From positions 64,001-128,000 of IMG/VR virus record IMGVR_UViG_3300025707_000003: 64,000 nt of DNA. One strand, 5' to 3'. How positions within the stretch are numbered: the first letter of the stretch is position 1; each line of letters starts with the position of its first letter. A program made the translations under genes and the position numbers. This document shows, piece by piece, positions 1-59,516 of this stretch. This stretch comes from a virus (lineage: Duplodnaviria > Caudoviricetes). The notes beneath the pieces are model-generated. The model did not search any database. It had not been told where the DNA came from and saw only the letters and a list, made by a program, of their open reading frames with translations.

Positions 1-1589
1 TGGATACGGTCAAGTACGAGTTTAATTTCTGAAGCACTCTCTTGTGAAAGCTGATCTCGGTTAGTGCTGAGTGAACGCTGTGTTGACATAAGTTGTGCAA
101 CAGCCCTCTCATCAACGATACCGTCCTCGTTAAAAGATGTAATCGCCGCACGAATGACAGAGATAGTATCTGTGATCATACCCTGTGCGTAAGCGATGTC
201 TTGGTTCTGCCAAGGTCCAGGTGTTGAAGTAAGACCGATAGGGTATTTACCATAGAGAGGTCCACTTTTACGATGTTCACCACGCTGTGAGAACGCAGAG
301 ACATAACCCTTTTTGAGCTTAGACTTGAGTTGCTTTGCAAAAAACATCTCGGCATCATAAGAGTCCATAAATGATTTGTCAGAACTGCGACCAGTTGAAC
401 CGAGGCGACCATAAAGAATTTCTACTGTTGAACCATTGATGACCATCTCGTAGAACTTGCTCTTGTTCTCAGACTCACCGATGAGATAAAGCATACAAGA
501 GGTAGCGTCAGCGATTGAGCGACCATCGTGATAAGCAGTGCCTGAGCGAACTCCTTCAAGTTGTGGTTTACCTGCGGCTTCACGAGTCATGCGAGCTGTA
601 CGGTTGAGGTTTCCTTCAAGACGAGCAATCCTCATCTCAAGATTTCTGATTACTTCACTAGCTGATTTACGCATAGTGTTTCCTTTCTTTAGAAGCCTTC
701 TGACTTCATCTTTAGAATAAGAGTTGTTGAGCCTACGCTCATTTCTGTAGATGAGATGACGCAATCGCTTACGCTCCTCATCATTGAGTGAATCAATGCC
801 TCTACGCTGACCTTTATTGATAAGCATAAAGTCATCTCGTGATAGATTAACATTGGATTTAAGATCTGCAAGTAACTTAGACTCTGGAGAGGACTGACTA
901 GCAATGATCTCTTCAACTACATTCATTTGTCTTTCAGAGAGCTGAATACGATCTTCAGCTTTAGACTTGAGTTGAGCCAAGAAACGATTACGAGGGTCGA
1001 GTTCAAGTGCTTCTTCAATACGAACGAGCTGATTGTTAGGCTGATTTCCAACCATCTGTACAGCATCAAGCTTTTCGTCTATAACTTCAAGTTGTCTCTC
1101 GGAAAGCTCTCGCCCTCCCATAAGCTGGTCATAAAGGCTTCTGTAGAAACGATTTGTTGGTTGCATTGCGATTAACTCATTGAGTTTCATCAAGATTTCT
1201 TGGTCTGGGTCTTCAATACGCTCTTCAGTATCGATTAGGATCTCTTCTACTCGATACCCAAGAGGTTCTCCGTGTTCAAGATACTCAAGAATACCTTTCC
1301 ACCAATCGCTGTTTGGATTAAGTGCAAGTACTGCTTGCACACGATCAATACTCTCCATATCTCGAAATTTCCCTGGGAAGTCTACCTTTAACTGTATTAA
1401 ACCCTCCCGTATAGACATACCGTCAATGCTTCTCACAAGAGTCACAAGTACAGAGTCCCCTTTTTTATTCAACTTGACTTCAAACTCATCAAAGTTGATC
1501 AAGGCATTGTCTCTCCTAGACTCCATTTCAAGCATCTCTAGTGCTTCGCCTACTGTGGTATTGTAGAATATAATCTGGTTTTCTTTCAT
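1..1589 (-). CDS. Partial ORF (>529 aa, runs off left edge): N-terminal unknown region, internal leader peptide at 674, then WGR domain
   Basis: Hand-translated open frame from ATG 1589 to the edge, absent from the ORF track. Contains MRKSASEVIRNLEMRIARLE (ATG 674, RBS aaggaaa) and WGR-like NKSKFYEMVINGSTVEILYGRLGSTG...AKQLKSKLKKGYV. Class I motif upstream at 1622-1633. Confidence 0.8.
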   Translation of the reverse strand, partial: MKENQIIFYNTTVGEALEMLEMESRRDNALINFDEFEVKLNKKGDSVLVTLVRSIDGMSIREGLIQLKVDFPGKFRDMESIDRVQAVLALNPNSDWWKGILEYLEHGEPLGYRVEEILIDTEERIEDPDQEILMKLNELIAMQPTNRFYRSLYDQLMGGRELSERQLEVIDEKLDAVQMVGNQPNNQLVRIEEALELDPRNRFLAQLKSKAEDRIQLSERQMNVVEEIIASQSSPESKLLADLKSNVNLSRDDFMLINKGQRRGIDSLNDEERKRLRHLIYRNERRLNNSYSKDEVRRLLKKGNTMRKSASEVIRNLEMRIARLEGNLNRTARMTREAAGKPQLEGVRSGTAYHDGRSIADATSCMLYLIGESENKSKFYEMVINGSTVEILYGRLGSTGRSSDKSFMDSYDAEMFFAKQLKSKLKKGYVSAFSQRGEHRKSGPLYGKYPIGLTSTPGPWQNQDIAYAQGMITDTISVIRAAITSFNEDGIVDERAVAQLMSTQRSLSTNRDQLSQESASEIKLVLDRI

Positions 1590-1621
1590 TATAAGACCCC
1601 TTTGCTTTTAAAAGGGGGGTT

Positions 1622-1633
1622 ATAAATAAACTA
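1622..1633 (-). promoter_or_regulatory. Class I motif TAGTTTATTTAT
   Basis: Upstream of ORF at 1589. Confidence 0.7.
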
Positions 1634-1646
1634 CAAAAAGGAACAC

Positions 1647-2159
1647 ATGAAAATCTTAAAAGTCACAGCCGAAAAACAAGAGTCTATCAACAGGACACTC
1701 GAAAATATCTTAAGTGAACATCTAATGCTCACACAGATGTACTCTTTCGAGGGGTCAGATAAAGATTTACTACAAGTCGCGGAGTTTTCTTCTACTTGTC
1801 TTGAACACCTTAGTAATATCCTTATTAGCGATACAGACATTACATGGAATTGGAAAGCGTATCAAAAGGCTCGTAAAGACTTCTCCGAGAAGCCTACCCC
1901 TCAAACCAAAGAGAAGTTGATCCTTCATATTCAGTTCAATCTTGGTGTGCATGAGTCATCTCTCCACACAGGGGAAAAGTGGGAGTTAGTAGAGGACAAA
2001 AATGGGTACTTAAAGTTTAAGTCTGTTTACCCTAACAAGTTTCACATAAGTTTGGGTCAGTTAGAGGACTTAAAGAAATCATATCCGTTTGTTGATGATG
2101 TTATATACAATCAAGATGGACTCTACATTCAGTACAACGAGGTGCAAAATGACACATGA
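1647..2159 (+). CDS. Hypothetical protein
   Basis: 170-aa ORF with RBS aaggaa. Confidence 0.6.
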   Translation: MKILKVTAEKQESINRTLENILSEHLMLTQMYSFEGSDKDLLQVAEFSSTCLEHLSNILISDTDITWNWKAYQKARKDFSEKPTPQTKEKLILHIQFNLGVHESSLHTGEKWELVEDKNGYLKFKSVYPNKFHISLGQLEDLKKSYPFVDDVIYNQDGLYIQYNEVQNDT

Positions 2160-2433
2160 TGAGATAATAACCAAATGGCAGTCTTTGTTTACAGACGAGT
2201 ACGGAGAACCGACACTCACATACCTTGAAGTATCTGAGTCTTGGTATCTATTGATTGATACTTTATGTAGTCAGATCCAAAGTCACCTCATGCAAACACC
2301 CGATGTCAGCCCTGTGCAGGTCGTTCAAATCAAAGAGAAGTTTGGAGGGTTGAGGTTTTATACTAACAACCAGGATCTTTACATAGACGGACTAATTCAA
2401 ATGGCTGAGGCTTACAGTTACCATATTGTTTGA
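2149..2433 (+). CDS. Conserved phage hypothetical protein (QIKEKFGGLRFY motif)
   Basis: Start reassigned to ATG 2149 (RBS gagg); motif VVQIKEKFGGLRFY is familiar from phage hypothetical proteins. Confidence 0.65.
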   Translation: MTHDEIITKWQSLFTDEYGEPTLTYLEVSESWYLLIDTLCSQIQSHLMQTPDVSPVQVVQIKEKFGGLRFYTNNQDLYIDGLIQMAEAYSYHIV

Positions 2434-2445
2434 TAGTTATTTTAT
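2434..2445 (+). promoter_or_regulatory. Class I variant TAGTTATTTTAT
   Basis: Upstream of portal operon. Confidence 0.55.
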
Positions 2446-2473
2446 ACTCTCGCTTTCACAAAGGGAGTATATT

Positions 2474-2740
2474 ATGTCATTACCTAGAGAACGAAAAAGA
2501 GCAGATTATCGAGTGATCGCTCGTATCTTGCAACTGAGTCATGGACAGGGAAACCCAAAAGACTCTTTGCTTGAAAATACTTCTATTGTATTTACTCTAA
2601 AGGGGGGGTCATGGGTATTATTCTTTGAAGGACACCCAAAACACAGCAAACTACTTAAAATAGTGATAAAAGCTGTCGTAAAACATAAGAAGGATCAACA
2701 TGAGCGAAGAAATAGATGCAAAACCAGTCGGGAAGATTAA
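2474..2740 (+). CDS. Hypothetical protein
   Basis: ATG 2474 after aagggag RBS and class I-like motif at 2434. Confidence 0.5.
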   Translation: MSLPRERKRADYRVIARILQLSHGQGNPKDSLLENTSIVFTLKGGSWVLFFEGHPKHSKLLKIVIKAVVKHKKDQHERRNRCKTSRED

Positions 2741-4376
2741 ACCTCGATCTAAAGCAACCACTCGTAAGCTCAGTCCTGCTGAGATGAAATCGAGGGTGAA
2801 GATAGCGATGACTACAGGTGGCTCTATGATGGGGTCGGGTGGAAACTTCTATTCTCCAGAGCTATCGACAGACTTTCTTGAGCTACCTCAAAGTCAAGAC
2901 GAACAACGCAACTACTTTAGGTTCTTCTATCGCACTGACCCATTCGTTGGTCAGGCGATTGACCTACATACAGAGCTACCCCTCTCTAAGATCAGATTAG
3001 GATTACCTAAAGCTCGCAATAGAGATATGGCGTATGAAGCTCTAAGGTTTTGTGAAAAGTGGTCTAAGCGAGTAGGTCTTCTTCATCGGTTAATAGAAAT
3101 CTTACATGAGTTCAATCTACTTGGTGAGGCGTTTGTCTTTTGTGAAGACAATAACCCCGATGTGCCTCAAGAGATCACACATAGTGGTCGAAATGTCCTC
3201 AAAGAAGATGGCGAAGCGTTTACCGAGTGGACTGAGTATGAGGACGCAGATGAACGAGCTTTCAAATGGCTTAAAAGGAATTATAAAGGTTGGACTGGTC
3301 TTAGAATCCTTCCACCAGAGCAAGTTCACATGGAGAGTTTTCCTTTCACTAGTGAGAAGATCATCCAACTTATTCCCGATAGTAAAACTCGTGATGTAGT
3401 TGAACGAGCTTCGGTTAATGACCCCTCTGCTCTTCGTATCGTGGACTCTATGCCAGGTGATGTTGTTGAAGCTATCCGAGATGGTCGCAACATTGATCTC
3501 AACACCGATCCCGATCAAGGTTCATTCGTTTACTATATGGCTCGTAAGAAATCACAATATGAGCCTCGTGGACACTCTATGCTTGAGCGTTGTCTTCGTG
3601 TCCTCGTTTATCGAGATAAGTTAAGACAGGCACAAACCTCAATCGCTTCAAGACACATGACTCCTATCCGTCTTGTTTATGCAGAGGATATGGATGCGTC
3701 TGATGTCGAAGAGTTGAGAGATCAAGTGGATCTTGCATTACAAGACCCAGACTACTCGATCATCGCTAACTTTCAAGTATCTTGGGAAGAAATGGGTGCA
3801 GACTCTCGCTTATTAGAACTATCGGGTGAATATGACATGACCGACCGACAAATGTATGCTGGTCTAGGTGTTACTGAATCTCTGTTGTCGGGTGAGTCTA
3901 GTTATAGTGGCGACAGGATCAACCTAGAAGTCATCAACACACGCTATATGCTTATGCGTGAGGTTCTTCAAGAGATGGTTGAGGAGAACATCTTGAAGCC
4001 AATGTGTAGACGAATGGGTTTCGTTGAAGAAGATGAAGATGGGGATGAAATTGTCGTACACCCAACTCTTAGCTTCACTAGACTTGGATTGCGAGATAAC
4101 CAAGATACCTTTGATGCTCTCTTTAATCTGTATCAGAAGGGTTCATTGGACATTGATGTCATCTTAGAACTTCTTAATGTCGATCCTATGACCACTAAAG
4201 CTAAACTTGAGCGTGATATGTGGACACTCAACGATAGTCAGTTTAATGAGGTTCTTAGAGGGGTCTATGGTGAAGCTGGTCGTATGTTAGCCGAGAATAC
4301 CGAAGCGATTGAACTCATCGCTAAGAATCTTGGCTTAAAGTACAACCCACCAGAAGAAGAAGGTGGTCGTTTCTAA
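2700..4376 (+). CDS. Portal protein (probable)
   Basis: 558 aa; RFFYRTDPFVGQAIDLHTELPLSK N-terminal block resembles large-phage portals; head genes in same window. Confidence 0.7.
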   Translation: MSEEIDAKPVGKIKPRSKATTRKLSPAEMKSRVKIAMTTGGSMMGSGGNFYSPELSTDFLELPQSQDEQRNYFRFFYRTDPFVGQAIDLHTELPLSKIRLGLPKARNRDMAYEALRFCEKWSKRVGLLHRLIEILHEFNLLGEAFVFCEDNNPDVPQEITHSGRNVLKEDGEAFTEWTEYEDADERAFKWLKRNYKGWTGLRILPPEQVHMESFPFTSEKIIQLIPDSKTRDVVERASVNDPSALRIVDSMPGDVVEAIRDGRNIDLNTDPDQGSFVYYMARKKSQYEPRGHSMLERCLRVLVYRDKLRQAQTSIASRHMTPIRLVYAEDMDASDVEELRDQVDLALQDPDYSIIANFQVSWEEMGADSRLLELSGEYDMTDRQMYAGLGVTESLLSGESSYSGDRINLEVINTRYMLMREVLQEMVEENILKPMCRRMGFVEEDEDGDEIVVHPTLSFTRLGLRDNQDTFDALFNLYQKGSLDIDVILELLNVDPMTTKAKLERDMWTLNDSQFNEVLRGVYGEAGRMLAENTEAIELIAKNLGLKYNPPEEEGGRF

Positions 4377-4388
4377 TAGTTTATTTAT
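4377..4388 (+). promoter_or_regulatory. Class I motif plus cassette module
   Basis: Followed by GTGATCTTAAGTGATCTC...AATGGAGA. Confidence 0.75.
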
Positions 4389-4439
4389 GAGTGATCTTAA
4401 GTGATCTCTTTAACCACAAACTTGAATGGAGAAACCATT

Positions 4440-4769
4440 ATGAGAAGATCTGCAACCGAAGTTATTAATGACCTTGAGATGAGAATCGCAAGGCTTGAAA
4501 AAGAAGCAAAAGAAGCAAATGATCTTCTTTTTTCGATAAATGAGGATGAGTGGGCAATGCTTGCAGAACTGCACGAAAATTTATCGAGCCGCGGCCCTTT
4601 ACAAGATCTAAAGTCAGGTTTGCCAAGTCATGTTCAGAAAGATTTTTCTAAAGTCTTACAACGAGGTAAGAACGATTATGTTACAAAGGAACTTTTAAAT
4701 TACTCAAAGGCGGTACGAGCCGAGCAATCTAAGTTAAAAGATTCACTCGGCAATATTCTGGGTATCTAA
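4440..4769 (+). CDS. Leader-tagged hypothetical protein
   Basis: Begins MRRSATEVINDLEMRIARLE behind the conserved promoter-hairpin-RBS module. Confidence 0.8.
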   Translation: MRRSATEVINDLEMRIARLEKEAKEANDLLFSINEDEWAMLAELHENLSSRGPLQDLKSGLPSHVQKDFSKVLQRGKNDYVTKELLNYSKAVRAEQSKLKDSLGNILGI

Positions 4770-10382: not shown

Positions 10383-11147
10383 ATGAGAGCAGTACACATC
10401 TACGATTTTGACGGGACTTTATTTAGAACTCCACAAAGACCAAACTGGTATGACAATAACTTGGATGGGGTTTGGCATCAAAACCCATTGAGTTTTGCAG
10501 AACCTTGTCTACCTAAAGGTGAGCGTTGGGTTAAGTCTATTGTTTCAGAAGCTAAGAGAAGCATCGCCTCAAAGGATGTTTACACCATCGTCCTTACAGG
10601 GCGTAAGACACCTTTTCAAAGAGTAGTTGAGGATCTTTTAAGATCAAAAGGATTAAAGTTTGATGAGGTCATCTTGAAAGACAGAGGAGATACTGAGTCT
10701 TTTAAAAACAGAGTAATAGATCGCCTTATGGCACTGTTTCCTGATGCAGAGATCCACATCTGGGAAGATAGACATAATCATTTAAAAGTATTCATGGATC
10801 ACATCGAGATGAGAGGTGGCGTTGGAATCCCTCACGCAGTACCGCAAAACTACTCGGTGGCTGAATGTTCTGAAGAGGAGTTTAGGGATATGAGAAGATC
10901 AGCATCAGAAACTATTAGAAATCTTGAGCATCGCATTGCTCGACTTGAGGGGTCTAGGACAGCTTCAAGCGATGTTCGTAGAGCTGGCAAGAAAGTTATT
11001 GAAGCAATAGACAAGCTACAGGAAGAGCTTGAGAAGATGCCTTCCTTCAACAGTGATGAGTCTTACTATGAGGATTTAAGAGAGCGTTTTGAGGCACTTC
11101 ACCTTAGCGTCCATAAAGAGGTTCAGTTCATCACAGGTGCTTACTAA
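10383..11147 (+). CDS. HAD-superfamily phosphatase (Swiss-Army-Knife RNA-repair-like HAD) with C-terminal leader-tagged module
   Basis: IYDFDGTLFRTP, VLTGRK, IWEDR motifs; internal MRRSASETIRNLEHRIARLE at ATG 10890 with its own RBS. Confidence 0.8.
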   Translation: MRAVHIYDFDGTLFRTPQRPNWYDNNLDGVWHQNPLSFAEPCLPKGERWVKSIVSEAKRSIASKDVYTIVLTGRKTPFQRVVEDLLRSKGLKFDEVILKDRGDTESFKNRVIDRLMALFPDAEIHIWEDRHNHLKVFMDHIEMRGGVGIPHAVPQNYSVAECSEEEFRDMRRSASETIRNLEHRIARLEGSRTASSDVRRAGKKVIEAIDKLQEELEKMPSFNSDESYYEDLRERFEALHLSVHKEVQFITGAY

Positions 11148-16607: not shown

Positions 16608-17249
16608 ATGAGTAGCGATCAAGGCTTATTGCCGATTATGAGTCCTTTATATAACTTACGAGAGATCTGTAAGCAGATCGTCCTACTCGAAGATCACCTT
16701 AACCAACCTCGCAAAAGATGCCCCGATTGTATCCGTAAACATTTCCTCACCATAGAAGCATTATTTGAGGAAGCGGTATCTCTTGATAAAGAGTTGAAAT
16801 ATACAGAGGTGCTAGACAATAAGGCTGAAGAGATTAGGAAGCTCCAATCTGTATGGTTAGACACTAGAGAGAGTGAACACGCACATAGGTTTTACCTCAT
16901 CCTCGCTCAAGCACTTAGAGTTCTCAGAAAGAGCTTTGCTGAACATTGCTTTGATGTTCGCAAGATGGCGAGCATGGAGCGTAAGGCTAGTTCTTATGTC
17001 TGCCCACACATGAGGGTAGCTACTAAAACCGAATCTGAAAAAGAGGATGAAGCAGTACAGAAGCTCATTCGTAGATCTCCGAAGAAAAAGCCACCACGCA
17101 AAGACCTTCGTAAGAACAGAGTAGAAATCAGCGATGACCCCGACCTACAAGGTGTTGGTCGTGGGGATCAAGGCGACCCAGACCTTTCTCGTAGAGATCA
17201 AAAGATGGCGAAGCGTATTGCTCTTAAGCATCTGAACTTAAGAGCGTAA
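16608..17249 (+). CDS. Hypothetical late protein (CxxC motif)
   Basis: RKRCPDCIRKH; class I motif at 16553. Confidence 0.7.
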   Translation: MSSDQGLLPIMSPLYNLREICKQIVLLEDHLNQPRKRCPDCIRKHFLTIEALFEEAVSLDKELKYTEVLDNKAEEIRKLQSVWLDTRESEHAHRFYLILAQALRVLRKSFAEHCFDVRKMASMERKASSYVCPHMRVATKTESEKEDEAVQKLIRRSPKKKPPRKDLRKNRVEISDDPDLQGVGRGDQGDPDLSRRDQKMAKRIALKHLNLRA

Positions 17250-17252
17250 TCT

Positions 17253-20200
17253 GTGATGTTAAATATACTTCTACTCGAACTGCAAAATGAGCTAGATAAA
17301 ACAGACAGACTCCTTTTAGAGGCATATCGAGTAGCCGCACCTCTAAAAAATGAGGACGGTTCTCGTAAACCCACAGTTAAAAAGAAGCGAAAGAAACAGA
17401 AACTCACACCAGAGCAGAAGAAGAAACAGAAAAAAGAACAAAAGATCGTTAAAAAGGTCAAAGAAAAACTCAAAAGCCGCACCTATAAGAGCAGGCAAAC
17501 TGGTGATGAGTTATCCTTCAACACAGCCTATAATCGCAAACACCCTAAAGCGGTCAAAGACTTCAACAAAGCGATGGAAAAGGCTAGGGGTTCTAAAGGG
17601 GAATCAAAGAAAGAGGTCAACTACTCGGTAAAAGCTAAACTTAATGATGAACAGTACGACCTACTATCAAGAATGAACAATGGTCGAGACATGAAAGATA
17701 TGTCTCTCGTTGAAGAACGCACCATGAGAGACATCATGTCACTTCTTATGGACATCCATGAAGAGGTTCGAGAAGAGGTGGGCGAGCCTCCCCCTAAGAA
17801 GACAAGAAGTACAAGATCAGATAAAGGTAAGAAGCGTGGGCCGTATAATAAGAAGGTCAAAGAAAAGCTCACAACCTCTCTTGAAGAAGAAGGTATTGAA
17901 GCTGTTGACCTAAATGTTCAAGAGACATCCGACATTCCAGAGGAAGAGGTAAAAGAAACTAAAGGAGTCTTAGACGAAAGAGCTAAAGAGAGATCTGAAC
18001 AAACAGGAGAGGAAGAACCTAAGAAACCCAAGAAACCCAAGAAACCCAAGAAACCCAAAGAGCCTATAGATGGTGCTCCTTTACTTGAACAGCCTAGCTA
18101 TGTCCAAAAGGCAGAAATCAAAGATCGTCTTGAGAAAGCGTTTAGAGATAATTTAAGTAAAGGCACTAGCGAGAAGATGGAAAAGCTCGAAGATAAACTC
18201 CAAGACCCCTCTTTAAGTGATAAAGAAAAGAGAGATCTCCAAGAGCAGATCAAGGAACTTGAAAAAAAGGATCTTGCCTCAACTAGAAAAAGCACAAGGA
18301 CTCTTGTTCAGAGGATAAGTGAAACTGTGGACGCTCTTGATGAACTCACTGAAGATCAAGTCGAACAAATGGCTGACGCTTACGGTTCTGGTGCAGTCAC
18401 AGTCGAAGATGTCATGAGAAATAATGGACTCGATGGACTACAGTCATACCTCGATGACGAAGTGAAGAATAAAGACTTCGGCCCTCCGAAGCCCCCTTCA
18501 GACAGAGAGGGTTTTGCAGAAGAGTTAGGGAAATACCTAGCAATTACCCACGCACAAAAGAGCATTGCAGAAGACCCAGAGTTTGGGTTGCGTGAGTTTC
18601 CTAGTGATGGGGATGATCATGATAAAGAGAAACACTTAGAGAATGTACGCAGAGTCCAATCAAGACGCTTTAAGAAGATGGACACAGATCAGCGTACTAA
18701 CATGGTTTCTAGGGTCAAAGAGGATATTGACGAGGCTATAGAAACCTTAAAAGATGAAGGACTGTCCGAAGATGAAAAGAAGTCCTTACAAGGTAAGATC
18801 GCAAACTTAAAATCATCAGAAACTGCCCTCAATACAGTACGCATGATAAAAGAGGAAGGTGTCATTGATGGGTATGCTGAAGTACCCGACAAATTGCTTG
18901 AGCTTGCAAGGCAAACAGGATCTGAAGCTTGGGAAGAAGGAATTAGTTTGCTCTCCCAACAAGGCACAAACCCTAGTAAGACACGAGATCTAATTGAGTC
19001 GGTCACTGAAAACCTTGACACAGAAGATTTTAAGGCTGTGGTAGGTGGAGAACAAGGGCCTTATGGTGAAATGCTTGACTTGTTGGATGACGACTATTGT
19101 CCAGGTGGTCCAACAAATAATTCTAAAGATCTTGGTGACAGGAAGCTCAAACCATCAGATGATCCTTGCCCTAATCCTTTATCTGATGACATGAAGAAGA
19201 TGTTAAGGGATTACATGAGTGGTGGGTTCGTTAATCTCTACACAGTCGAAAAAGAATCTAAAGGTGACGGTCACTACAAACCGAAAAAGGGTGATGAGGG
19301 GGCTTCCAAGCAAGTTAAGAAGCAGATGAAGGAATTTTGGAGAGATAACAAAGAGAAGTTTTTCGAGGTGTTTGTTGATGGGATTGATCTGTCAACAAAT
19401 AAACCCTATACCGATGAACAAAGAGAAGCGGCAGGGGAGGAATTCAGAACTAGATGGTTTGCTGAAGAAACTCGGAGTAGCATTGATGGTGTCCAACTCT
19501 ACAGTGGAAACGCCAAACGCTTTAGGTGGGAGCAGATACAGCAGGAATTAGAAAAAGTGAAAAATTTAGATGGTGCGATTAAGAGGCAGAAACTTAAAGA
19601 GATAAGAACTAGGCTTACAGAGCTGTTTGATGACACAGCAACTCAAGAATCAGAGTCAGCAACCTCAAAAAAACAAGCAAATAATTTTAATAGTTCATTT
19701 ATTGACACCTACTATAAGAGTGGAGGCACTAAAATCATGCAAAAAAGATCTACACAGTATGTTGATTATCAGCGTAGATCCCAAGCGTTTGAACTTGGGA
19801 TGCGTGTCTATCCCTTTCTTGGGGGTAATCCGTCAAGGTCTGGTCTGGTTATAGCTATCTTTCCTGCTATTGGTATGGTAGATGTGCAGTTTCCTCATGG
19901 TTCGCAACGCTATCCTGTAGAGGATCTTGTAGTAGATACTTCGGGTGATTACTTGAACATTTACGAAGATGACCAAGATACTATCCCTGGTGGCGTAGGT
20001 ACTGTTCCTGTTTCATCTCGTTCTGTTAAAAAGCAAGCTAGTCGTGTCGCCTCCAAGTACATGAAGCAAGCTATTTATTGGTACAAAAGGGATCGTACAT
20101 ATCGCCAATGTCGGCATGAGGTAAAACCTTGTTGTCCTAAGTGCAAAAACCCACTCGGCAATACTGTTTACAAAAGAAGAGGAGGTAAGAGTGAGAAACT

Positions 20201-20258
20201 GCTCGCTTGTTATACTTGTCTCTTCATCATCAAACCTTCCGACATCATTAAGGGGTAA
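17253..20258 (+). CDS. 1001-aa K/E-rich protein, with nested in-frame gene from ATG 19737 ending in a Zn ribbon
   Basis: KPK repeats; internal class I motif 19691-19702 and ggagg RBS; C-terminal CPKC...CYTC. Confidence 0.7.
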   Translation: MMLNILLLELQNELDKTDRLLLEAYRVAAPLKNEDGSRKPTVKKKRKKQKLTPEQKKKQKKEQKIVKKVKEKLKSRTYKSRQTGDELSFNTAYNRKHPKAVKDFNKAMEKARGSKGESKKEVNYSVKAKLNDEQYDLLSRMNNGRDMKDMSLVEERTMRDIMSLLMDIHEEVREEVGEPPPKKTRSTRSDKGKKRGPYNKKVKEKLTTSLEEEGIEAVDLNVQETSDIPEEEVKETKGVLDERAKERSEQTGEEEPKKPKKPKKPKKPKEPIDGAPLLEQPSYVQKAEIKDRLEKAFRDNLSKGTSEKMEKLEDKLQDPSLSDKEKRDLQEQIKELEKKDLASTRKSTRTLVQRISETVDALDELTEDQVEQMADAYGSGAVTVEDVMRNNGLDGLQSYLDDEVKNKDFGPPKPPSDREGFAEELGKYLAITHAQKSIAEDPEFGLREFPSDGDDHDKEKHLENVRRVQSRRFKKMDTDQRTNMVSRVKEDIDEAIETLKDEGLSEDEKKSLQGKIANLKSSETALNTVRMIKEEGVIDGYAEVPDKLLELARQTGSEAWEEGISLLSQQGTNPSKTRDLIESVTENLDTEDFKAVVGGEQGPYGEMLDLLDDDYCPGGPTNNSKDLGDRKLKPSDDPCPNPLSDDMKKMLRDYMSGGFVNLYTVEKESKGDGHYKPKKGDEGASKQVKKQMKEFWRDNKEKFFEVFVDGIDLSTNKPYTDEQREAAGEEFRTRWFAEETRSSIDGVQLYSGNAKRFRWEQIQQELEKVKNLDGAIKRQKLKEIRTRLTELFDDTATQESESATSKKQANNFNSSFIDTYYKSGGTKIMQKRSTQYVDYQRRSQAFELGMRVYPFLGGNPSRSGLVIAIFPAIGMVDVQFPHGSQRYPVEDLVVDTSGDYLNIYEDDQDTIPGGVGTVPVSSRSVKKQASRVASKYMKQAIYWYKRDRTYRQCRHEVKPCCPKCKNPLGNTVYKRRGGKSEKLLACYTCLFIIKPSDIIKG
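19691..19702 (+). promoter_or_regulatory. Class I variant TAGTTCATTTAT inside a CDS
   Basis: 35 nt upstream of in-frame ATG 19737 with ggagg RBS. Confidence 0.55.
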
Positions 20259-20261
20259 AGC

Positions 20262-21707
20262 ATGGCATTTTTAAGATATGCTAGGGCTAATGTAGTACAG
20301 CCCTCTATTCATGGTCTACAATGGGATAAAGTTAGAATCGCTTCTGGTGATAAAACCATCAATGCCTCGCTCAAAAAGCAAGCTGAGGATATTCTAGGCG
20401 AACCTTTCACTCCCGATAGATTTCTACTTACACACTCCACAATCGTTTGTTCTGTCGATGCTTTCACGCCTCCTAATACAAAGACAGGCTCGATCACTGA
20501 GGGTGGGCAAACCATTAACCGTAAATATGCTGACTATCGTATAAGTTCAGATACAGATAAGTTCATCAATAACAACCTCGACTCATGGTCAAGGGAAGTG
20601 ATCAAGAAGTCTTATCCGACTTTCATTGGTGCTCATAACTTTGTTGAGCATATCCAAGTAGAAGAACTCTCAAAAGGTCGCATTATAGATGCAGTCCTTA
20701 GAGACATAGGTGAATCTCTATATGTAGACATCCTTGTCGCCACTGATCGTAAGCATGAAGACTTAGTAAAACAGATCGAGTCGGGTCAAATGAACGCAAT
20801 GTCTATGGGATGTAGCGTAGACTTTACCATTTGTACTAAATGTGGTCATGTAGCCGCTGATGAAACAGAGATGTGTTCTCATGTTAAATATGAGAAGGGC
20901 AATGTTTTCTATGATGAGCAAGGAAATCAGCATAGAGTAGCAGAGCTTTGTGGGCATGAAGATATTGGTGGCACAGCAGGTGTTACCTTCATTGAGGCTT
21001 CTTGGGTCGCAACTCCTGCATTTACAGGAGCTGTTGCTCGAAACACATTAGAGATACCCTCTGCTGATATGGCAAAATCTGCTTCGGATGTGGAACTAAA
21101 TGAAGTCCCCGAAAAGTGGATCGCCAAAGCCTCTAGCTTACAAAGTTCTCCTTGGTATGACCCTCATGGTCAACTAACTAAAAAGGCTGGCCCTTTTGAT
21201 ATGGATGAGGATGAAGAAGAAGGTGGAGGCGATGACGCTTCAACCCCTTCAGAGTCTTTGCTCAAACAATTAGAATCTGTGTATGAGACTGCTATTGTAG
21301 ATCGTTTTCGTAAAAAACTAGAGAACGAGATCAAAGCAGAAAAAGCTCAAGAAGTTATGAACCCCCCAATAGATAAATCTGTCGTTGAGCAAAATGATAC
21401 GATTATCAAAGAGGGAGTTTCTGCTTCTAAATATATGAGTCTCTTAGATGCTTCTGTTAAAACAGCTAAAACTGTTGAAGAAGCTGTCTTGAACATTACT
21501 TTGGTAAACAACCATTGTAAAGTTCATGTCCCGACCCATGTTTATAAGTTGGCTAGTGTTCTAGGTACAACAACACAATATAATAGTGTTGTTGATTATC
21601 TTGAGCAAGCCAACTACTTAAACGGTAAAAAATTATCGAAGCAAGACACTCTTCGTCTTGTAAGATTAGCTAAACTGTTATCCCTTAACACTTACGGGCA
21701 GAAATAA
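20262..21707 (+). CDS. Prohead (head maturation) protease with Zn-binding insert
   Basis: HNFVEH, MSMGCSVDFTICTKCG...CSH, FIEASWVATPAF match the HK97/assemblin-type protease pattern; directly upstream of scaffold and capsid genes. Confidence 0.75.
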   Translation: MAFLRYARANVVQPSIHGLQWDKVRIASGDKTINASLKKQAEDILGEPFTPDRFLLTHSTIVCSVDAFTPPNTKTGSITEGGQTINRKYADYRISSDTDKFINNNLDSWSREVIKKSYPTFIGAHNFVEHIQVEELSKGRIIDAVLRDIGESLYVDILVATDRKHEDLVKQIESGQMNAMSMGCSVDFTICTKCGHVAADETEMCSHVKYEKGNVFYDEQGNQHRVAELCGHEDIGGTAGVTFIEASWVATPAFTGAVARNTLEIPSADMAKSASDVELNEVPEKWIAKASSLQSSPWYDPHGQLTKKAGPFDMDEDEEEGGGDDASTPSESLLKQLESVYETAIVDRFRKKLENEIKAEKAQEVMNPPIDKSVVEQNDTIIKEGVSASKYMSLLDASVKTAKTVEEAVLNITLVNNHCKVHVPTHVYKLASVLGTTTQYNSVVDYLEQANYLNGKKLSKQDTLRLVRLAKLLSLNTYGQK

Positions 21708-21743
21708 GTCTCGCCCTGTTTCACCCCAGAAAGGAATTGCCTT

Positions 21744-23321
21744 ATGTCTAGGTATTCTCGTTCTAAGAATATGTCACGCAGGGCAGAACTTGCTCGTAGA
21801 AGAAATCGCAGAGCAAACTCTGCCCTTCCAGGTTCTGATAACCTCGGTTGGGATCACTTCGGTCATCCTGCCTCCTCTGATCAACCCGATGTTGACGCTT
21901 ATGGACTCGATTCAGAGTTCGGTGAAGGAGTCCGTAAAGGACCCTATCGCTCAGGCCCAGCTCCTGCCTCTGTAGGTTGGACTCCTGAACACCCTGCTTC
22001 TTCTGATGAGACCGCTGAGGATTATGCTCTTACTGATGATCTTCGCCAAGAGAATCTTAAGAAAGCTATGGAGCGTAAAGCGGCAAAGTGTATTCAAATC
22101 GCTGAATCTCGTCTTGGTCGTAGAGCTTCTCAAGTTGAAGTTGAAGATCTTGCACTACGCATGATGGATCTCCCTAATCGTACTGTTAATGCTCGTGTTG
22201 CTCGTCTTGCAGACAATGCTGTACAAGTCGGTACTGACTATGATGATGGTCTTGACTTCACAGGTCCAGGTAATGCAAGTGATGAGATTGAAGCTGATGG
22301 TCACATGGGTCATGGTATGTTCGATGAATATGACATTGACGGTGATGAAATGATCGACATGAGCGAATGGGGTGGTTCAGACTCTGCATTCAACTCTATG
22401 GATACAAACGAAGACGGATTCCTTTCTCGTGATGAAGTCGCTATGGGTCTTGGTGAGTCATTCGCTGATGATATTGAAGCTGATGATGAACTCGCAAACA
22501 TCATGGCTGAACTTGAAGCTGATGACATGGGTATGAATTCAGCAGATCAACTAGCAGAAGAAATCGCTATGCTCAAAGCGGCAAACGCTCGTCTTGCTCG
22601 CAAGGTTCGTAAGCTCGCTGATAATGCTGTACAAGTTGGCACAGACAATCCAGTTGAAGACCCAGAACTACAGATCGACACTTCTCCAGAAAATGAGCCA
22701 TCTGAAGGTCAACCTACTCAGCGTCTTGCTAAGATTGAACGACTCGCAGAAGCTCTTTCTGCTTATATGTCTGATCGTCAAGCAGGAGATGACATGGCTT
22801 CTCTTCTTGCAGAGCTTGAGGCTGATGACTCTCGTGAAATGAACGATTCAAACTTTGGTTACACTGCCGAAGAAACTGTTGAAGCTCATGATATTGAAGC
22901 TCATGAACTTGAAGCTCATGAACTTGAAGCTGATGATATTGAAGCTGATGATATTGAAACTCATATGATGGGTGAAGATGTCATGGGGCTTGATATGAAC
23001 GCTGACGATCTGATGGCTATGGATCCTCGCCTCGCTTCAATCTTTACTGCATCTGATGAAGAAGATTCTGATGAAGAAGATTCTAGCGAAGAAGATTCTA
23101 GCGAAGAAGATTCTAGCGAAGAAGAAAAGACTGAAGAAGATTCTGAAGAAGAAAAGACTGAGGAAAAGGCTAAGAAGAAAGCTTCTTATCGCCCACGCAC
23201 CTCAGCTCGTAAATCGGCAGTTAAGACTCTTGGGAACATTTCTCGTGAGGCTTCAAGAGGTTCAGACGAACTTTCTAAACTTTGGGAATCTGCTCCCGAT
23301 GTAAGCAAGTTCTTCGGATAA
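21744..23321 (+). CDS. Scaffold protein (probable), acidic, with EF-hand pair and internal repeats
   Basis: Position between protease and capsid genes; D/E-rich; repeats LADNAVQVGTD x2, AH(D/E)(I/L)E, EEDSS; DIDGDEMIDMSE and DTNEDGFLSRDE loops. Confidence 0.7.
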   Translation: MSRYSRSKNMSRRAELARRRNRRANSALPGSDNLGWDHFGHPASSDQPDVDAYGLDSEFGEGVRKGPYRSGPAPASVGWTPEHPASSDETAEDYALTDDLRQENLKKAMERKAAKCIQIAESRLGRRASQVEVEDLALRMMDLPNRTVNARVARLADNAVQVGTDYDDGLDFTGPGNASDEIEADGHMGHGMFDEYDIDGDEMIDMSEWGGSDSAFNSMDTNEDGFLSRDEVAMGLGESFADDIEADDELANIMAELEADDMGMNSADQLAEEIAMLKAANARLARKVRKLADNAVQVGTDNPVEDPELQIDTSPENEPSEGQPTQRLAKIERLAEALSAYMSDRQAGDDMASLLAELEADDSREMNDSNFGYTAEETVEAHDIEAHELEAHELEADDIEADDIETHMMGEDVMGLDMNADDLMAMDPRLASIFTASDEEDSDEEDSSEEDSSEEDSSEEEKTEEDSEEEKTEEKAKKKASYRPRTSARKSAVKTLGNISREASRGSDELSKLWESAPDVSKFFG

Positions 23322-23463: not shown

Positions 23464-24051
23464 ATGGCTCTACTTGGACAAGCTAGTGGTGGTTTTACAG
23501 AGTCAAGCTCTGCGTTGCGTATACTTCATGTTGGTGTGCGTAATACTGTAGGTCAACTACACAGCAGTGCTTTCACTCAGTCAAACCCCGTTTTTGGTGC
23601 TAATGCTACATCAGCACCAGGTCTTTTAACAAATGTACTCGGAGTACTTAGCGGTTCTATCGCTTTTACTCGTGGTACTACTAACGAGCATGGTGGACCT
23701 TCAGTGGCAGCCGCTCCTGCTACTGAGCGTGTGCTTGGTGTTTTCATCAACAATGCTTCGGGCAATGCTTTTGAGAATCAACCAGGTGTTGCTTCTAACC
23801 GTGGCCCATATGTTTCTGCACAAGGTACTTTTGCGAACCTTCTGTATGAGACAGTAAATGTTGCTACCAATGCTGACATCACAGCAACTTATGTTCCTGG
23901 TGCTACATTGATTGCTTCTATCAATGGTTTCTTGACCACCGCTGTAAATAATGCAAATCACGATCATACTGATAGTGCTACTACCATCGGTATTCTTAAA
24001 ATCTCTCCCGACTCAACTTCTGATGAGTTGGTATACGACCAACGCATCTGA
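23464..24051 (+). CDS. Capsid decoration/cement protein (putative)
   Basis: Small Gly/Ala/Thr-rich beta protein immediately before MCP; highly biased codons. Confidence 0.55.
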   Translation: MALLGQASGGFTESSSALRILHVGVRNTVGQLHSSAFTQSNPVFGANATSAPGLLTNVLGVLSGSIAFTRGTTNEHGGPSVAAAPATERVLGVFINNASGNAFENQPGVASNRGPYVSAQGTFANLLYETVNVATNADITATYVPGATLIASINGFLTTAVNNANHDHTDSATTIGILKISPDSTSDELVYDQRI

Positions 24052-24073
24052 TAGAAAGGAAGAGTGATTTATT

Positions 24074-26538: not shown

Positions 26539-26550
26539 TAGTTTATTTAT
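26539..26550 (+). promoter_or_regulatory. Class I motif plus cassette module
   Basis: Exact consensus. Confidence 0.75.
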
Positions 26551-26600
26551 AATAGATCTTAAGTGATCTCTTTAACCAAGAATCCAAATGGAGAAACATT

Positions 26601-41717: not shown

Positions 41718-42107
41718 TTACTTGTTGAAGTCAGTGCGAACACTACGAGGAATTAAAAGTACTTTGCGAAGAAGCAACTCAAGCTGACGAACTTCACCCC
41801 TACCTTCTCCTTCTACACAAAACAGCTCAAGCTCTGTTAGCCCATTAGAAGCAGTGAAACCAATGAAGTGCTTATAGTCATACTTTATCTCCCAATCGCC
41901 CTCTTCTGCAATTAAGATTTTATTAGACCAACTTTCGATGTAACTAGTGATGTCCTTAAAGTCTCCTCGCTTACGAACATAATAATCACCCTCTGAACCT
42001 TCGTGGATGTGACCCTCAAGCTCAAAAACAAGAGAGGAAGATTGTTTCTCAAGACGAGCGATTCTTAGCTCAAGTTCATTAATTATTTCTGATGCTGATC
42101 TTTTCAT
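41718..42107 (-). CDS. Leader-tagged hypothetical protein
   Basis: MKRSASEIINELELRIARLE; second gene of a leader-tagged pair. Confidence 0.8.
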   Translation of the reverse strand: MKRSASEIINELELRIARLEKQSSSLVFELEGHIHEGSEGDYYVRKRGDFKDITSYIESWSNKILIAEEGDWEIKYDYKHFIGFTASNGLTELELFCVEGEGRGEVRQLELLLRKVLLIPRSVRTDFNK

Positions 42108-42109: not shown

Positions 42110-42793
42110 TTACTTTAACCGTTCTGCTTCTAGGTTGTGATATTGAATAGCCTCTTCAAGAGCGTAAGCGACCCTAGACATTGAACCACTACTCGTTCTG
42201 AGCTTAGATTGTGAACCTCTACCCTCTAAGATTGGCTCTAAAATGTCAGATAACTTATTATAACCCACCGCTAAAACATAAGTAATGATAGAGAAAATAA
42301 CAGTAACACTCGCATATAAAAGCACACCACTCAGCAGGGGAGTCACTACAAAATAAATTTGTTGCAGTATCGCCACCAAAACTAATATCGCAGGAACTCC
42401 CTGAGTAAACTTTCTCAAAGCAACTTCAGAAGGGGACTGATCTCTAGCTAGTTTAAGTTCGGCAGTCGAAACTAGCATATCTAAAGCCAACCCAATACGA
42501 CCTTTCAAAGTCCTCTCCGTTTTCATGATATGATCTTCTAAGATTTGATACTCAGGATCATAATCGTAAATATACACTAGTTGCTTTGCAAGAGTGCTCG
42601 CCCCCTTCATGCTTCTAGTATTAGATACCTTTTTGAGTAAAGCAATAATCTCTCTCATGTAAGGTATCTTATCAAATAACTTTACGAGATTTCTCTTAAC
42701 TGAATCTAGGGAGTCACCCAAAAAAGCTTCTCTTTCAAGATGGGCGATTCTTATCTCAAGTTCATTAATGATTTCTGATGCTCTTCTTCTCAT
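42110..42793 (-). CDS. Leader-tagged protein with predicted TM segments
   Basis: MRRRASEIINELEIRIAHLE; long hydrophobic stretch GVPAILVLVAIL...YVLAVG. Confidence 0.8.
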   Translation of the reverse strand: MRRRASEIINELEIRIAHLEREAFLGDSLDSVKRNLVKLFDKIPYMREIIALLKKVSNTRSMKGASTLAKQLVYIYDYDPEYQILEDHIMKTERTLKGRIGLALDMLVSTAELKLARDQSPSEVALRKFTQGVPAILVLVAILQQIYFVVTPLLSGVLLYASVTVIFSIITYVLAVGYNKLSDILEPILEGRGSQSKLRTSSGSMSRVAYALEEAIQYHNLEAERLK

Positions 42794-42842
42794 TCTTTGT
42801 CTCCATTTTGGTTAAGGTTAAACAGGTCACTTATGACCAATT

Positions 42843-56689: not shown

Positions 56690-57601
56690 ATGAGAAGACT
56701 AGCTTCGGAAATACTTAAAGATTTAGAACTAAGGGTAGCTCACCTTGAAAGTGGCTTTCAAGGTGAGTTGAGGAAATCTATTGAGGTTGTCATCGAAAAT
56801 ACTCCCTCAAATATAAGAATTGATCGAGTAGAGTTTCCCAGAACACAGGAAGAGTTTTTAGAGATAGAGGCAAATAATGTGCCCGTTATTTTTTACAACT
56901 GCCCACTTGGAACAAACATGGTCAACCGATTGGAACTGTTCAAGTCTGATTTTAATCCTATGGTAGAGTCTAGGCTTGCAGATAGGAATAAGAAAGACAT
57001 TGGTGGTTTGCTAGAGATTAGTCTCCAAGACCTCTTAAGATCAAACTTTGAGAGGGGTTCTCGATATGTAGGGAAGCACCGTCTGAATACGAGGGCTTTG
57101 AAAAAACTGCTAGGGGTTAATCTTTATGGTAAGGGTCAGATTTTAGAGGGTATGGGAATAAACTCTGCAAATATGTGGTGTGGACCTAAAGGGTGCGTCA
57201 CCCCCCTCCACCTTGATACAATCAACAACTTAGCATGGAATGTGTACGGGCAAAAGACATGGTTCTTGGTAAGTCCAGAGGATATGTACCACAAGGCTTA
57301 CTTAGAATCATTCAAAGAGCCTTATGAAGAGGACTATAAGGGTGATTGGACTAGGAACGATAATGGTCGATCTCCTACCTTTTCAAAGATGACAGAGAAC
57401 CCATTAAAGAGCTTTAATCATTTCCCTATGTCTAGGGGTATAAAGTTCCATAAGGTCGTGTTCAGAGAAAATGAAATGCTGTATCTTCCCGCTTATTGGG
57501 GACACTATGTTAATACTGACTCCGACTCTTTAATGATTAACCATTGGTACGATGAGGTGCCTATAATCCTTAGCTCAACAAGAGTGAAAGGCAATTTGTA
57601 G
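56690..57601 (+). CDS. Leader-tagged JmjC/cupin-8 2OG-Fe(II) oxygenase
   Basis: MRRLASEILKDLELRVAHLE; MWCGPKGCVTPLHLD...GQKTW...LYLPAYWGHYV (HxD...H intact). Confidence 0.85.
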   Translation: MRRLASEILKDLELRVAHLESGFQGELRKSIEVVIENTPSNIRIDRVEFPRTQEEFLEIEANNVPVIFYNCPLGTNMVNRLELFKSDFNPMVESRLADRNKKDIGGLLEISLQDLLRSNFERGSRYVGKHRLNTRALKKLLGVNLYGKGQILEGMGINSANMWCGPKGCVTPLHLDTINNLAWNVYGQKTWFLVSPEDMYHKAYLESFKEPYEEDYKGDWTRNDNGRSPTFSKMTENPLKSFNHFPMSRGIKFHKVVFRENEMLYLPAYWGHYVNTDSDSLMINHWYDEVPIILSSTRVKGNL

Positions 57602-58000: not shown

Positions 58001-58012
58001 TAGTTTATTTAT
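58001..58012 (+). promoter_or_regulatory. Class I motif plus cassette module
   Basis: Exact consensus. Confidence 0.75.
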
Positions 58013-58059
58013 GAGTGATCTTAAGTGATCTCATTAACCTTAACAAAATGGAGAAAACC

Positions 58060-58728
58060 ATGAGAAGATCAGCAACCGAAGTTATTAAAAACCTTGAGCG
58101 TAGAATCGCAAGGCTCGAAGGAAATATAAACACTCGAAAGACCGCAAGGGGAGATGTCGCTATCGAGACCGCTTCCGAGCGAGACATACAGAAGGCTTGG
58201 CCTAGAGTCACCTATAAAGGCAAAAGCATCCACGCAGACTACAGCAAATGGACTAACTCGGTCGAGAGTTCAGAACTTAGCGAGTATACTGATATTGGTT
58301 TGACGGATGATCTGGGTAATTCTCTGGAAGTTGCAGAAGGTGGACAAGAGGTTTATCTTGGATACAACCAAGAAAAAGATTTCTTTGTGATGGGCTTTGA
58401 TATGAGTTTCTATTCACAAGTAACAGAAGATGAGTGGGATGCTCATGCTGATGCCATGTCCAAATATGAGGACGCAAAGTTTGAAGCGGAGGAATGGAAT
58501 GAGGATGAGCCTGAGCCTTGGGACTTTGAAGGATATAATGAGGACTTTGAGAATGTCGAAGATCCTCGTCATAATGGTCACAGAGGTTGGGCGGCAGTAC
58601 TTTTTAGGGTTGAGAATGGTCGGATTAAGACAGAAGACCCTAAGTTCGGTACTAGTCTTTTTTATGAGATGGATGTACACAAGGGACTTAAGCGTAAGTT
58701 TAATCTCGTTGACCTTCGATTGGGATAA
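58060..58728 (+). CDS. Leader-tagged acidic hypothetical protein
   Basis: MRRSATEVIKNLERRIARLE; full upstream module. Confidence 0.8.
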   Translation: MRRSATEVIKNLERRIARLEGNINTRKTARGDVAIETASERDIQKAWPRVTYKGKSIHADYSKWTNSVESSELSEYTDIGLTDDLGNSLEVAEGGQEVYLGYNQEKDFFVMGFDMSFYSQVTEDEWDAHADAMSKYEDAKFEAEEWNEDEPEPWDFEGYNEDFENVEDPRHNGHRGWAAVLFRVENGRIKTEDPKFGTSLFYEMDVHKGLKRKFNLVDLRLG

Positions 58729-58837
58729 ACCTACCCTCAAACTCTAATAATGTTAGTTATACTCGTTATTAAGTCATCTATTAAAGGTTAAATGACTTAC
58801 TCCTATATGAGTGAACCTCATATCTAGGAGTAAGAAC

Positions 58838-59044
58838 ATGAGTGCTAAATCCTTTGAAGAAGCCGTAAGAACAACTCAACCTGTCATTTATGTAGGAGTT
58901 GAGCGTCAAGAGGCTAAGGGCTTCAATAAAGTAGTCCTCATACAAGAGAATAAAGAAGGGCTACAGACAACCGAACACCACATGACAGGTGATGTCTCTG
59001 TTCAAATGGTGAATGGTGTCTTAAAGGTTTATGTGAAAAGCTAA
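58838..59044 (+). CDS. Hypothetical protein
   Basis: Start reassigned after aggag. Confidence 0.55.
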   Translation: MSAKSFEEAVRTTQPVIYVGVERQEAKGFNKVVLIQENKEGLQTTEHHMTGDVSVQMVNGVLKVYVKS

Positions 59045-59081
59045 AGCAGATCTGCCGCTATGTCAGATGTGTGTAAACTCA
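59041..59081 (-). repeat. Non-coding remnant of a phoH 3' end
   Basis: Reads SLH-T-SDIAADLL* vs phoH SLHKSERSTL-SDIAADLL*; five nt differences in the last 27 nt, all synonymous. Confidence 0.85.
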
Positions 59082-59516
59082 GATGTGTTCCTCAAGCATT
59101 GCAGGGAGACTCCAGATCTCGTCAGAGATTTTGCCTAACTTACGATCACGAAAGCAGAGTCTTTCCAACTTACTTGCGTCTGCGTGATCCATATCCTCAA
59201 GATCAGTTGTGTACACCCGATAAGAGACCTCAGAGACACCCTCATCATCACAGATGCTAAGATCATTATCGTCACAGATCTGTTTGACCCTAGACTCAAA
59301 CTCATTTTGTAGTTCATCCGCTTCCATAAAATAACGGTGTATGAGAGCATGACTCTCTTCCTCTGACCAAACATCATAAATCCACTCATCAGCATCGAAG
59401 TGTCTGTAAGCGTTGCGACTGAGACCAGCCTTCTTACCAGAGGATTTCGTCTTCTTTTCAAGTCTTGCAATTCTCATTTCAAGGTTATTAATGATTTCTG
59501 TTGCTGATTTTCTCAT
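59079..59516 (-). CDS. Leader-tagged hypothetical protein
   Basis: MRKSATEIINNLEMRIARLE; variant upstream module. Confidence 0.8.
   Translation of the reverse strand: MRKSATEIINNLEMRIARLEKKTKSSGKKAGLSRNAYRHFDADEWIYDVWSEEESHALIHRYFMEADELQNEFESRVKQICDDNDLSICDDEGVSEVSYRVYTTDLEDMDHADASKLERLCFRDRKLGKISDEIWSLPAMLEEHI

Follow-up and report, generated by a model that had tools for sequence, protein, structure and literature searches.

A portable helical leader on unrelated proteins of a marine phage-G-like megaphage behaves as an undescribed sorting tag, with head loading as its most likely role

Why should twelve unrelated proteins of one phage carry the same twenty residues? The question is raised by a 64,000-nucleotide stretch of DNA, positions 64,001 to 128,000 of IMG/VR record IMGVR_UViG_3300025707_000003 (hereafter the window), which is part of a marine phage-G-like megaphage. 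A first-pass annotation had listed twelve starts of one leader peptide in the window and had likened the peptide to the capsid-targeting sequence of phage T4. All twelve open reading frames (ORFs) indeed translate to the leader M-R-R-[ST]-A-S-E-[IV]-[IL]-R-N-L-E-x-R-[IV]-A-R-L-E, and two independent scans, a six-frame peptide scan and a degenerate 48-nucleotide pattern, return exactly the same twelve copies (12 matches to the pattern vs. 0 in 100 shuffles). We find that the leader behaves as an undescribed sorting tag, for which loading into the phage head is the most likely role.

The peptide itself is under selection. M1, A5, E7, L12, E13, R15, A17, L19 and E20 are invariant in the twelve window copies, and the synonymous variation of their codons, noted in the first-pass annotation, can now be given as a ratio: by the Nei-Gojobori method the proportions of synonymous and nonsynonymous differences are pS = 0.54 and pN = 0.20, resulting in dN/dS = 0.24 (0.20 without codon 14). 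DNA identity among the copies is 74% over the leader and 29% over the following 60 nucleotides. Thus, the low dN/dS and the drop in identity downstream point to ancient copies with selection on the peptide, and not to recent duplicates of DNA. In 105 non-redundant copies the logo reads M R R [ST] A S E [VI] [IL] R [ND] L E x R [IV] A R L E [RKG] [QRK] [AST] [SAG], and conservation stops after residue 24; M occupies model position 1 in 91 of the 105, most with little in-frame sequence upstream. The proteins behind the leader are small and hypervariable, with 105 tagged proteins falling into 81 cargo clusters (median length 148 amino acids, maximum 371). Pfam has no match in 63 of 64 cargo representatives, and the recognizable cargo domains in all sets are WGR, cupin/JmjC and pentapeptide repeats. 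No Pfam model covers leader residues 1-24 in sets of 10, 64 and 50 tagged proteins, no PHROGs model does so in the sets of 10 and 64, and a literature search did not find the RIARLE motif in any phage context. These results support the view that the tag is portable, sits on cargos of unrelated kinds and is maintained by purifying selection.

The tag extends far beyond the window. The window capsid protein is 89% identical to that of LR745208.1 (a 485-kb uncultured phage), 47% to that of Tunturi_5 and 39% to that of phage G. Metagenomes of marine or seawater origin from 13 studies contain DNA nearly identical to the window's, and in five IMG/VR contigs of 227-376 kb the encoded capsid protein has 96-99% identity to that of the window. 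A complete contig of 375,691 bp (G001) is syntenic to the window over its 10.5-79.7 kb stretch, at about 80% DNA identity; the tagged genes sit in stretches that do not align to G001, in variable islets between aligning core genes. A hidden Markov model (HMM) of the leader, which the first-pass annotation had proposed to build, finds 31 copies in G001, and there are 9-29 strict copies in each of the five 227-376-kb contigs. In IMG/VR, a pattern scan returned at least 86 stretches, and among the 81 listed nearly all encode M-[RK]-R-x-A-S-E... at an ORF start. A 30-column profile searched against 1.84 billion protein cluster representatives gave 1,131 matches at E <= 1e-3, of which 142 also pass E <= 1e-10; almost every one of the best 150 has the tag from residue 1. 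A homology search with a single tagged protein recovers only near-identical copies, since the tag alone cannot reach significance there. In prokaryote genomes (596 Gb), none of the 80 loci listed has an N-terminal tag; these are internal coiled coils of ordinary proteins (GreA-like, release factor 1-like), and the leader was accordingly rejected as a cellular signal. As a separate observation, the capsid protein shows extreme conservation: of 562 related IMG/VR contigs, the best 80 have it at 91-100% identity. The scaffold-like protein is only 50-75% identical between those related contigs, the GC content of which ranges from 31 to 47% among the genomes examined.

In the window, the claim that the tag is N-terminal holds for most copies and fails for two, which lie in frame within longer ORFs. 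Tagged ORFs on the plus strand are found at 4440..4769 (109 amino acids, directly 3′ of the portal gene, leader at 4440-4499, no counterpart at that site in G001), 26601..26915 (104 amino acids), 27685..28164 (159), 28857..29291 (144), 31095..31469 (124), 56690..57601 (303, with a cupin/JmjC oxygenase domain; Cupin_8 2.9e-20, JmjC 1e-05) and 58060..58728 (222). On the minus strand, 59079..59516 encodes 145 amino acids, and a tagged two-gene operon comprises 42110..42793 (227 amino acids, with a long hydrophobic stretch of about two membrane helices by eye) and, as its second gene, 41718..42107 (129 amino acids). The first internal copy has leader codons 1-20 at 615..674 (−), from residue 306 of an ORF whose start is at 1589 (−) and whose end lies beyond the window start, with WGR-type cargo after it; the WGR match was found on the G001 orthologue of this cargo, and G001 keeps the same in-frame arrangement. 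Ahead of that cargo, a 305-residue repeat-containing domain lies in frame with no stop in 1-1589 (−). In the second, at 10890..11147 (+), the leader and a 65-amino-acid cargo are in frame in a HAD_SAK_1 ORF (10383-11147), with the leader at residue 170 and a GGAG 9 nucleotides ahead of the inner ATG at 10890. Each of these two units could yield both a fusion protein and an inner-start product. A further "degenerate copy" that had been proposed at 11910 (−) was not upheld: with the leader HMM, twelve matches in the window score 15 bits or more and this one is not among them, and its likeness to the leader is confined to IERKLAHLKSAG.

The tagged genes share a promoter motif with the head genes. 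Such a motif had been pointed out upstream of both, and a count bears it out, with 28 TAGTTTATTTATA-like sites in the window within 2 mismatches vs. 3 expected. These sites precede the head-assembly operon, the decoration-capsid operon, ORFs of 784 and 2191 amino acids, and most tagged genes. In G001, which has only 41 strict TAGTTTNTTTAT sites in 376 kb, 16 of 31 tagged ORFs lie behind one, vs. 22 of 511 other ORFs (odds ratio 23.7, p = 1.7e-12). The motif is thus common to tagged genes, the decoration-capsid operon and the protease-scaffold operon, which supports co-regulation of the tagged genes with head genes. Because it also stands before a glutamine-synthetase-like ORF and signal-peptide ORFs, it defines a late regulon and not strictly a virion one. 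Two signal-peptide-like ORFs that lie between tagged genes on the plus strand, 27045-27575 (MRLTIALLLSVLL..) and 28350-28715 (MRNLLTIALIALTF..), have the same promoter motif without the tag and without the 5′ untranslated region (5′UTR) of tagged genes.

That 5′UTR joins the promoter in a cassette. At 26539..26600 (+), for example, promoter-like TAGTTTATTTATA is followed by a conserved 5′UTR (..GTGATCTCTTTAACC..AATGGAGAA..), and the same cassette lies at 4377-4439, 27625-27684, 28795-28856, 31034-31094 and 58001-58059 on the plus strand and at 42794-42854 and 59517-59576 on the minus strand. The conserved 5′UTR within it spans 4390-4439, 26552-26600, 27638-27684, 28808-28856, 31047-31094 and 58014-58059 (+), and 42794-42841 and 59517-59563 (−). 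It has the form ..TCTC(C)ATnnGTGATCTCTTTAACC(C)TTAACC..AATGGAGAA.., and is missing from the other genes that have this promoter motif. Promoter, 5′UTR and the near-invariant first codons ATGAGAAGATCA occur together in 8 of the 12 window copies and in most G001 copies; four window copies have no cassette. The 5′ part of the UTR can base-pair with the Shine-Dalgarno region or, alternatively, with the AUGAGAAGA start, and a box UGAUCU complements leader codons 3-4 (AGAUCA; 86% paired vs. 60% or less when slid). RNAalifold found no consensus structure in the 5′UTR, the helices that would cover the Shine-Dalgarno region and the AUG show no covariation, and the support for the helix between the box and codons 3-4 is conservation only. 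Beside these cassettes, the end of a LAGLIDADG homing endonuclease gene (25618-26529; ..RWMVKF..) is repeated just 5′ of the next two promoter cassettes, so that RWMVKF-type gene ends are found at 26500, 26968 and 27598 (+).

By its form, the leader is a helix. It had been expected to make one with a hydrophobic repeat, and the logo places A5, I9, L12, I16 and L19 at heptad positions a and d. In an AlphaFold2 model of tagged ORF 28857, for which the input alignment was deep only across the tag, residues 5-47 form one helix, with confidence (pLDDT) of 94-96 over the first 20 residues. Position 14, at the outward-facing f of the heptad, is the sole free position of the leader; b, c, e and g are conserved as strongly as a and d, and only f varies. 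Since nearly the entire helix surface is constrained, a groove or bundle would accommodate the pattern more readily than a simple dimer would.

Beyond the helix lies a junction that recurs in its own right. The K/R-x-A motif that had been seen after the leader is well above chance, with [KR]x[AST] within residues 21-31 in 99 of 104 non-redundant copies (19.7 expected, maximum 33) and at residues 21-23 in 59 of 104 (2.3 expected). The junction takes the semi-conserved form LE-[RK]-Q-[AS]-[SA], or has [KR]-x-[AST] a few residues beyond, and S, G, A, T and N together make up 45% of residues 21-30 vs. 29% of the remainder of the protein. A second, internal R[IV]ARLE core is present in 15 of the best 150 database proteins (0.025 expected), and 13 of those 15 cores lack the N-terminal half of the tag (e.g. 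KMRVARLERQAS between two cargo domains). R[IV]ARLE[KR]Q[AS] is the C-terminal half of the tag, recurring between the domains of multi-cargo proteins; complete internal tag copies without a start codon are also present. The internal half-tags argue that the C-terminal half and the junction form a module of their own, and from this sequence pattern we infer that the module would be a processing site. Searched with an HMM of the half-leader, the remaining window ORFs, those of the head proteins among them, gave no additional sites, and so there is no "cleavage motif" common to the tag and the head proteins.

The tag also differs between lineages. G009, with a capsid protein 97% identical to the window's, has mostly the leader MRHLTASQKIAQLExRIAHLEKQA, and G006 (31% GC, capsid protein 94% identical) has MISQKLASLEARIAKLE. 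The core common to these flavours, LExR[IL]A[RKH]LE[KR]x[AS], is absent from LR745208.1, phage G and Tunturi_5. In LR745208.1, at least 11 unrelated ORFs share a leader of another kind, the 28-residue M(T)TLRSKLIRLAHENPALRPHLLPLLKEA, and AG or GG often comes next. One of these copies sits inside its stop-to-stop frame, at residue 355. Within the window, this leader has a single relative, on a late ORF of 353 amino acids at 61431..62492 (+), behind the same promoter motif and with the N-terminus MDKTQREQLLKLAQKDPSFKAKLVNILK; its residues 1-34 match Pfam Nif11 weakly (E = 0.026, below the cut-off). Tags that are uniform within a genome and different between lineages argue for one co-evolving reader. 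In Bacillus phage G, about nine ORFs (gp13, gp38 and gp53 included) begin MKRLIKK(S/A), which may be that phage's own short tag; some are paralogues, since an HGT(S) motif recurs a little further on in several of them. The particle proteome of phage G includes many non-structural proteins (bioRxiv 10.1101/2024.12.16.628780).

We looked for a partner of the tag among the head genes. The portal protein is encoded at 2700..4376 (+; phrog_16240, 1.8e-31). The head-assembly operon (16608..23321, +), with the promoter motif at 16553, comprises in order a 213-amino-acid ORF, a 1001-amino-acid ORF, a protease-domain ORF (20262-21707) and a scaffold-like ORF (21744-23321). A decoration-like ORF (23464-24051) and the major capsid protein (24074-24952) follow at 23464..24952 (+), with the motif at 23340; the capsid protein matches phage G gp27 (PDB 6wkk, 9e-64), and the 195-amino-acid ORF ahead of it corresponds in position to the phage G decoration protein. 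A PHROG "head maturation protease" match covers residues 100-260 of the protease-domain ORF, of which a single-sequence AlphaFold2 model was unusable (pLDDT 35). The scaffold-like ORF encodes an acidic protein of 525 amino acids with helices NARVARLADNAVQ, ANARLARKVRKLADNAVQ and RLAKIERLAEAL, and contains the ARVARLA and KIERLAE segments that the first-pass annotation had put forward as partner helices. Scaffold-like proteins of tag-bearing genomes have the helices ANARLA... and RLA[KR][IL]ERLA, which the LR745208.1 homologue lacks. Among 9-mer comparisons of leader and scaffold-like protein, only that of RIARLERQA with RLA[KR][IL]ERLA reaches z = 3-5, in the window, G001 and G009, and the best 9-mer likeness of each flavour shows no own-versus-own pattern across lineages; the scaffold was therefore rejected as a flavour-matched partner. 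Complex prediction with scaffold-like residues 100-350 and the leader (ORF 27685, residues 1-40) gave a score of 0.01, which is no evidence either way. The scaffold-like protein also has two canonical EF-hand loops, DIDGDEMIDMSE and DTNEDGFLSRDE (Pfam EF-hand around 2e-06), inside a segment that is missing from the LR745208.1 homologue; calcium-binding motifs are unusual for a phage scaffold. Auxiliary genes of the window encode glutamine-synthetase-like (53480-54502, late promoter motif), GroEL-like chaperonin (49924-51303), Sir2-like (43512-44303) and PhoH-like (59574-60863) proteins.

To the reading that the leader is a head-loading tag with a cleavable junction, comparable to the capsid targeting sequence (CTS) of T4, we give a probability of roughly one half. 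It draws on the co-regulation with head genes, on the junction and half-tag pattern, and on the small orphan cargos in variable islets. T4 and the 20-24-residue propeptides of SPN3US head proteins serve as its precedents (PMC10052503). The amphipathic helix, from residue 5 to about 22, would offer a surface that is read by one common partner, as the freedom of position 14 alone suggests for nearly the whole surface. The helix would bring small accessory proteins, once synthesized, to dock in the prohead during its assembly, the scaffolding core being the most plausible site; the junction would be cut during head maturation, leaving the cargo in the capsid, from which it could enter the next host along with the DNA. 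Multi-cargo proteins with C-terminal half-tags between domains would be cut into separate cargos. Capsid destination, scaffold receptor, cleavage and injection are all four steps that we infer. Several results weigh against this reading. The glutamine-synthetase-like ORF and two signal-peptide ORFs behind the same promoter are unlikely virion parts, and the cargo of ORF 42110..42793 (−) looks membrane-type. RIARLE is also the start of the c-Jun zipper, so that the peptide would pair as a generic coiled coil. The leader lacks the cleavage motif of T4 (L/I-x-E) or of phage SPN3US (A-x-E) at its end: the P3 residue is R, H or K before E20 and N, D, S or E before E13 in the logo, and only A5-S6-E7 fits A-x-E. 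The protease-domain ORF has no Pfam or PDB sequence match, and its family was not placed. Likewise, the resemblance of leader to scaffold is modest and does not follow leader flavour, the ADNAVQ scaffold helices are confined to the closest subclade, and neither scaffold-leader comparison nor complex prediction identified a receptor for the tag.

Alternatively, the tag could be an address by which cargo reaches some common partner outside the head, an explanation that we consider possible, at clearly longer odds. The partner could be another late assembly, an intracellular phage structure, a phage chaperonin or unfoldase, a leader-reading enzyme like a RiPP maturase (RiPP, ribosomally synthesized and post-translationally modified peptide) or a host hub protein. 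All of the evidence for a single partner (logo, selection, flavours and scale) fits such an address equally well, the window encodes a GroEL-like protein, and the N-terminus of the T4 capsid protein is reported to direct proteins to GroEL (work cited in PMC10052503). A conserved leader, a hypervariable body and a junction motif would also suit RiPP precursor families, and the other leader type resembles the Nif11 leader domain, if weakly (the match at E = 0.026, below the cut-off). However, cargos of 60-370 amino acids far exceed RiPP cores, no C39 peptidase scores above the cut-off in G001, G006 or G009, no candidate reader enzyme adjoins the tagged genes within the window, and it is with head genes that the tagged genes are co-regulated. 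A more far-reaching reading, which we regard as rather improbable, is a general sorting system in which interchangeable tags (the RIARLE coiled-coil flavours and the two-helix, weakly Nif11-like tag of the sister lineage) would be read by one lineage-specific receptor and processed in a dedicated step at [KR]-x-A. Such a system would serve some 30 effectors in each genome, all with fast turnover. Half-tags would be the cutting points of multi-cargo polyproteins, and the destination might be not the capsid but an intracellular phage structure or an export route.

The helix could instead be a generic self-association module, a leucine-zipper-like element making dimers or trimers without any sorting. 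The clear a/d heptad pattern, the confidently predicted helix and the hexapeptide in common with the c-Jun zipper are what such a module would show, but conservation at b, c, e and g equals that at a and d, with f alone varying, and the sequence is nearly constant across more than 1,100 unrelated cargos. Flavours that are uniform per genome and differ between lineages point to a shared partner, and a zipper needs neither half-tags between domains nor a variably spaced [KR]x[AST] motif, so that we think this explanation unlikely. Finally, the tag might be mainly a DNA- or RNA-level cassette that is spread by recombination and sets expression, with the peptide as a passenger. In T4-type phages, promoter-stem-loop cassettes mediate gene shuffling, and here promoter, 5′UTR and first codons travel jointly in 8 of the 12 window copies and most G001 copies, the UTR box TGATCT is able to pair with codons 3-4, and the tagged genes are located in variable islets. 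A passenger peptide is nevertheless hard to reconcile with a dN/dS of 0.2 at near-saturated synonymous change, with four window copies that keep the peptide without the cassette, with internal copies that have no start codon, or with a 5′UTR in which neither a consensus structure nor covariation of the anti-Shine-Dalgarno and anti-AUG helices was detected; as a full account it is very improbable. The cassette probably also aids shuffling and sets expression, yet this leaves the peptide unexplained.

If head loading is true, the tag would mark the injected protein repertoire of an abundant marine megaphage group, and more than 1,100 mostly unknown small protein families, recognized from sequence only, would become candidate effectors of host takeover and anti-defence. 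Capsid targeting would then scale to about 30 cargos per genome, by a tag that is swappable between sister lineages, and such swaps would make the long-open question of the reader testable through lineage comparison. A 24-residue helical tag with a built-in junction might also be of use for packaging foreign proteins in large capsids.

Among known systems, the closest in outline is the CTS found on the T4 internal proteins IPI-III and on Alt (Mullaney and Black, 1996, as cited in PMC10052503). Like the CTS, the megaphage tag is a short, portable and usually N-terminal peptide on unrelated small proteins, its genes are expressed with head genes, and it ends beside a likely processing site; the comparison is made from sequence, and packaging and cleavage of the megaphage tag are predictions. 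The CTS has about 10 residues and a handful of cargos, whereas the megaphage tag has 20-24 residues in a heptad helix, bears no likeness to MKTYQEFIAE, lacks L/I-x-E at its end, is found on about 30 cargos per genome and may sit internally. By sequence, length and cleavage motif alike, the megaphage tag thus falls outside the T4 CTS family. In the giant phage SPN3US, the head proteins gp45 and gp225 have N-terminal propeptides of 20-24 residues that are removed by the prohead protease gp245 at A-X-E (PMC10052503). The length is similar and the carrier is again a giant phage, with removal of the megaphage tag at head maturation being predicted. Unlike the megaphage tag, however, the SPN3US propeptides are not reported as one sequence across unrelated proteins, and in the megaphage tag A-X-E fits only at A5-S6-E7, where a cut would leave the helix on the cargo.

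Other systems share single features with the megaphage tag. Encapsulin cargo-loading peptides load diverse cargo into an HK97-fold shell, and are C-terminal, extended, bound directly to the shell and uncleaved; the megaphage tag is similarly short, but is N-terminal or internal, and helical. RiPP leader families such as the Nif11-type prochlorosins combine one conserved leader and a junction motif with hypervariable bodies, of which a genome has dozens. In the megaphages, by contrast, the bodies are whole proteins of 60-370 amino acids, and neither a maturase nor a C39 exporter is encoded, with no C39 peptidase above the cut-off in G001, G006 and G009. Pfam matches nothing in the RIARLE leader, and a weak, sub-threshold likeness to Nif11 is limited to the LR745208.1-type leader. 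Finally, as in the promoter-stem-loop cassettes of T4-type phages, a repeated promoter-plus-UTR unit flanks orphan genes in hypervariable regions; in the megaphage, however, the promoter is of the late and not the early class, and the cassette reaches into a coding leader that is itself under selection.

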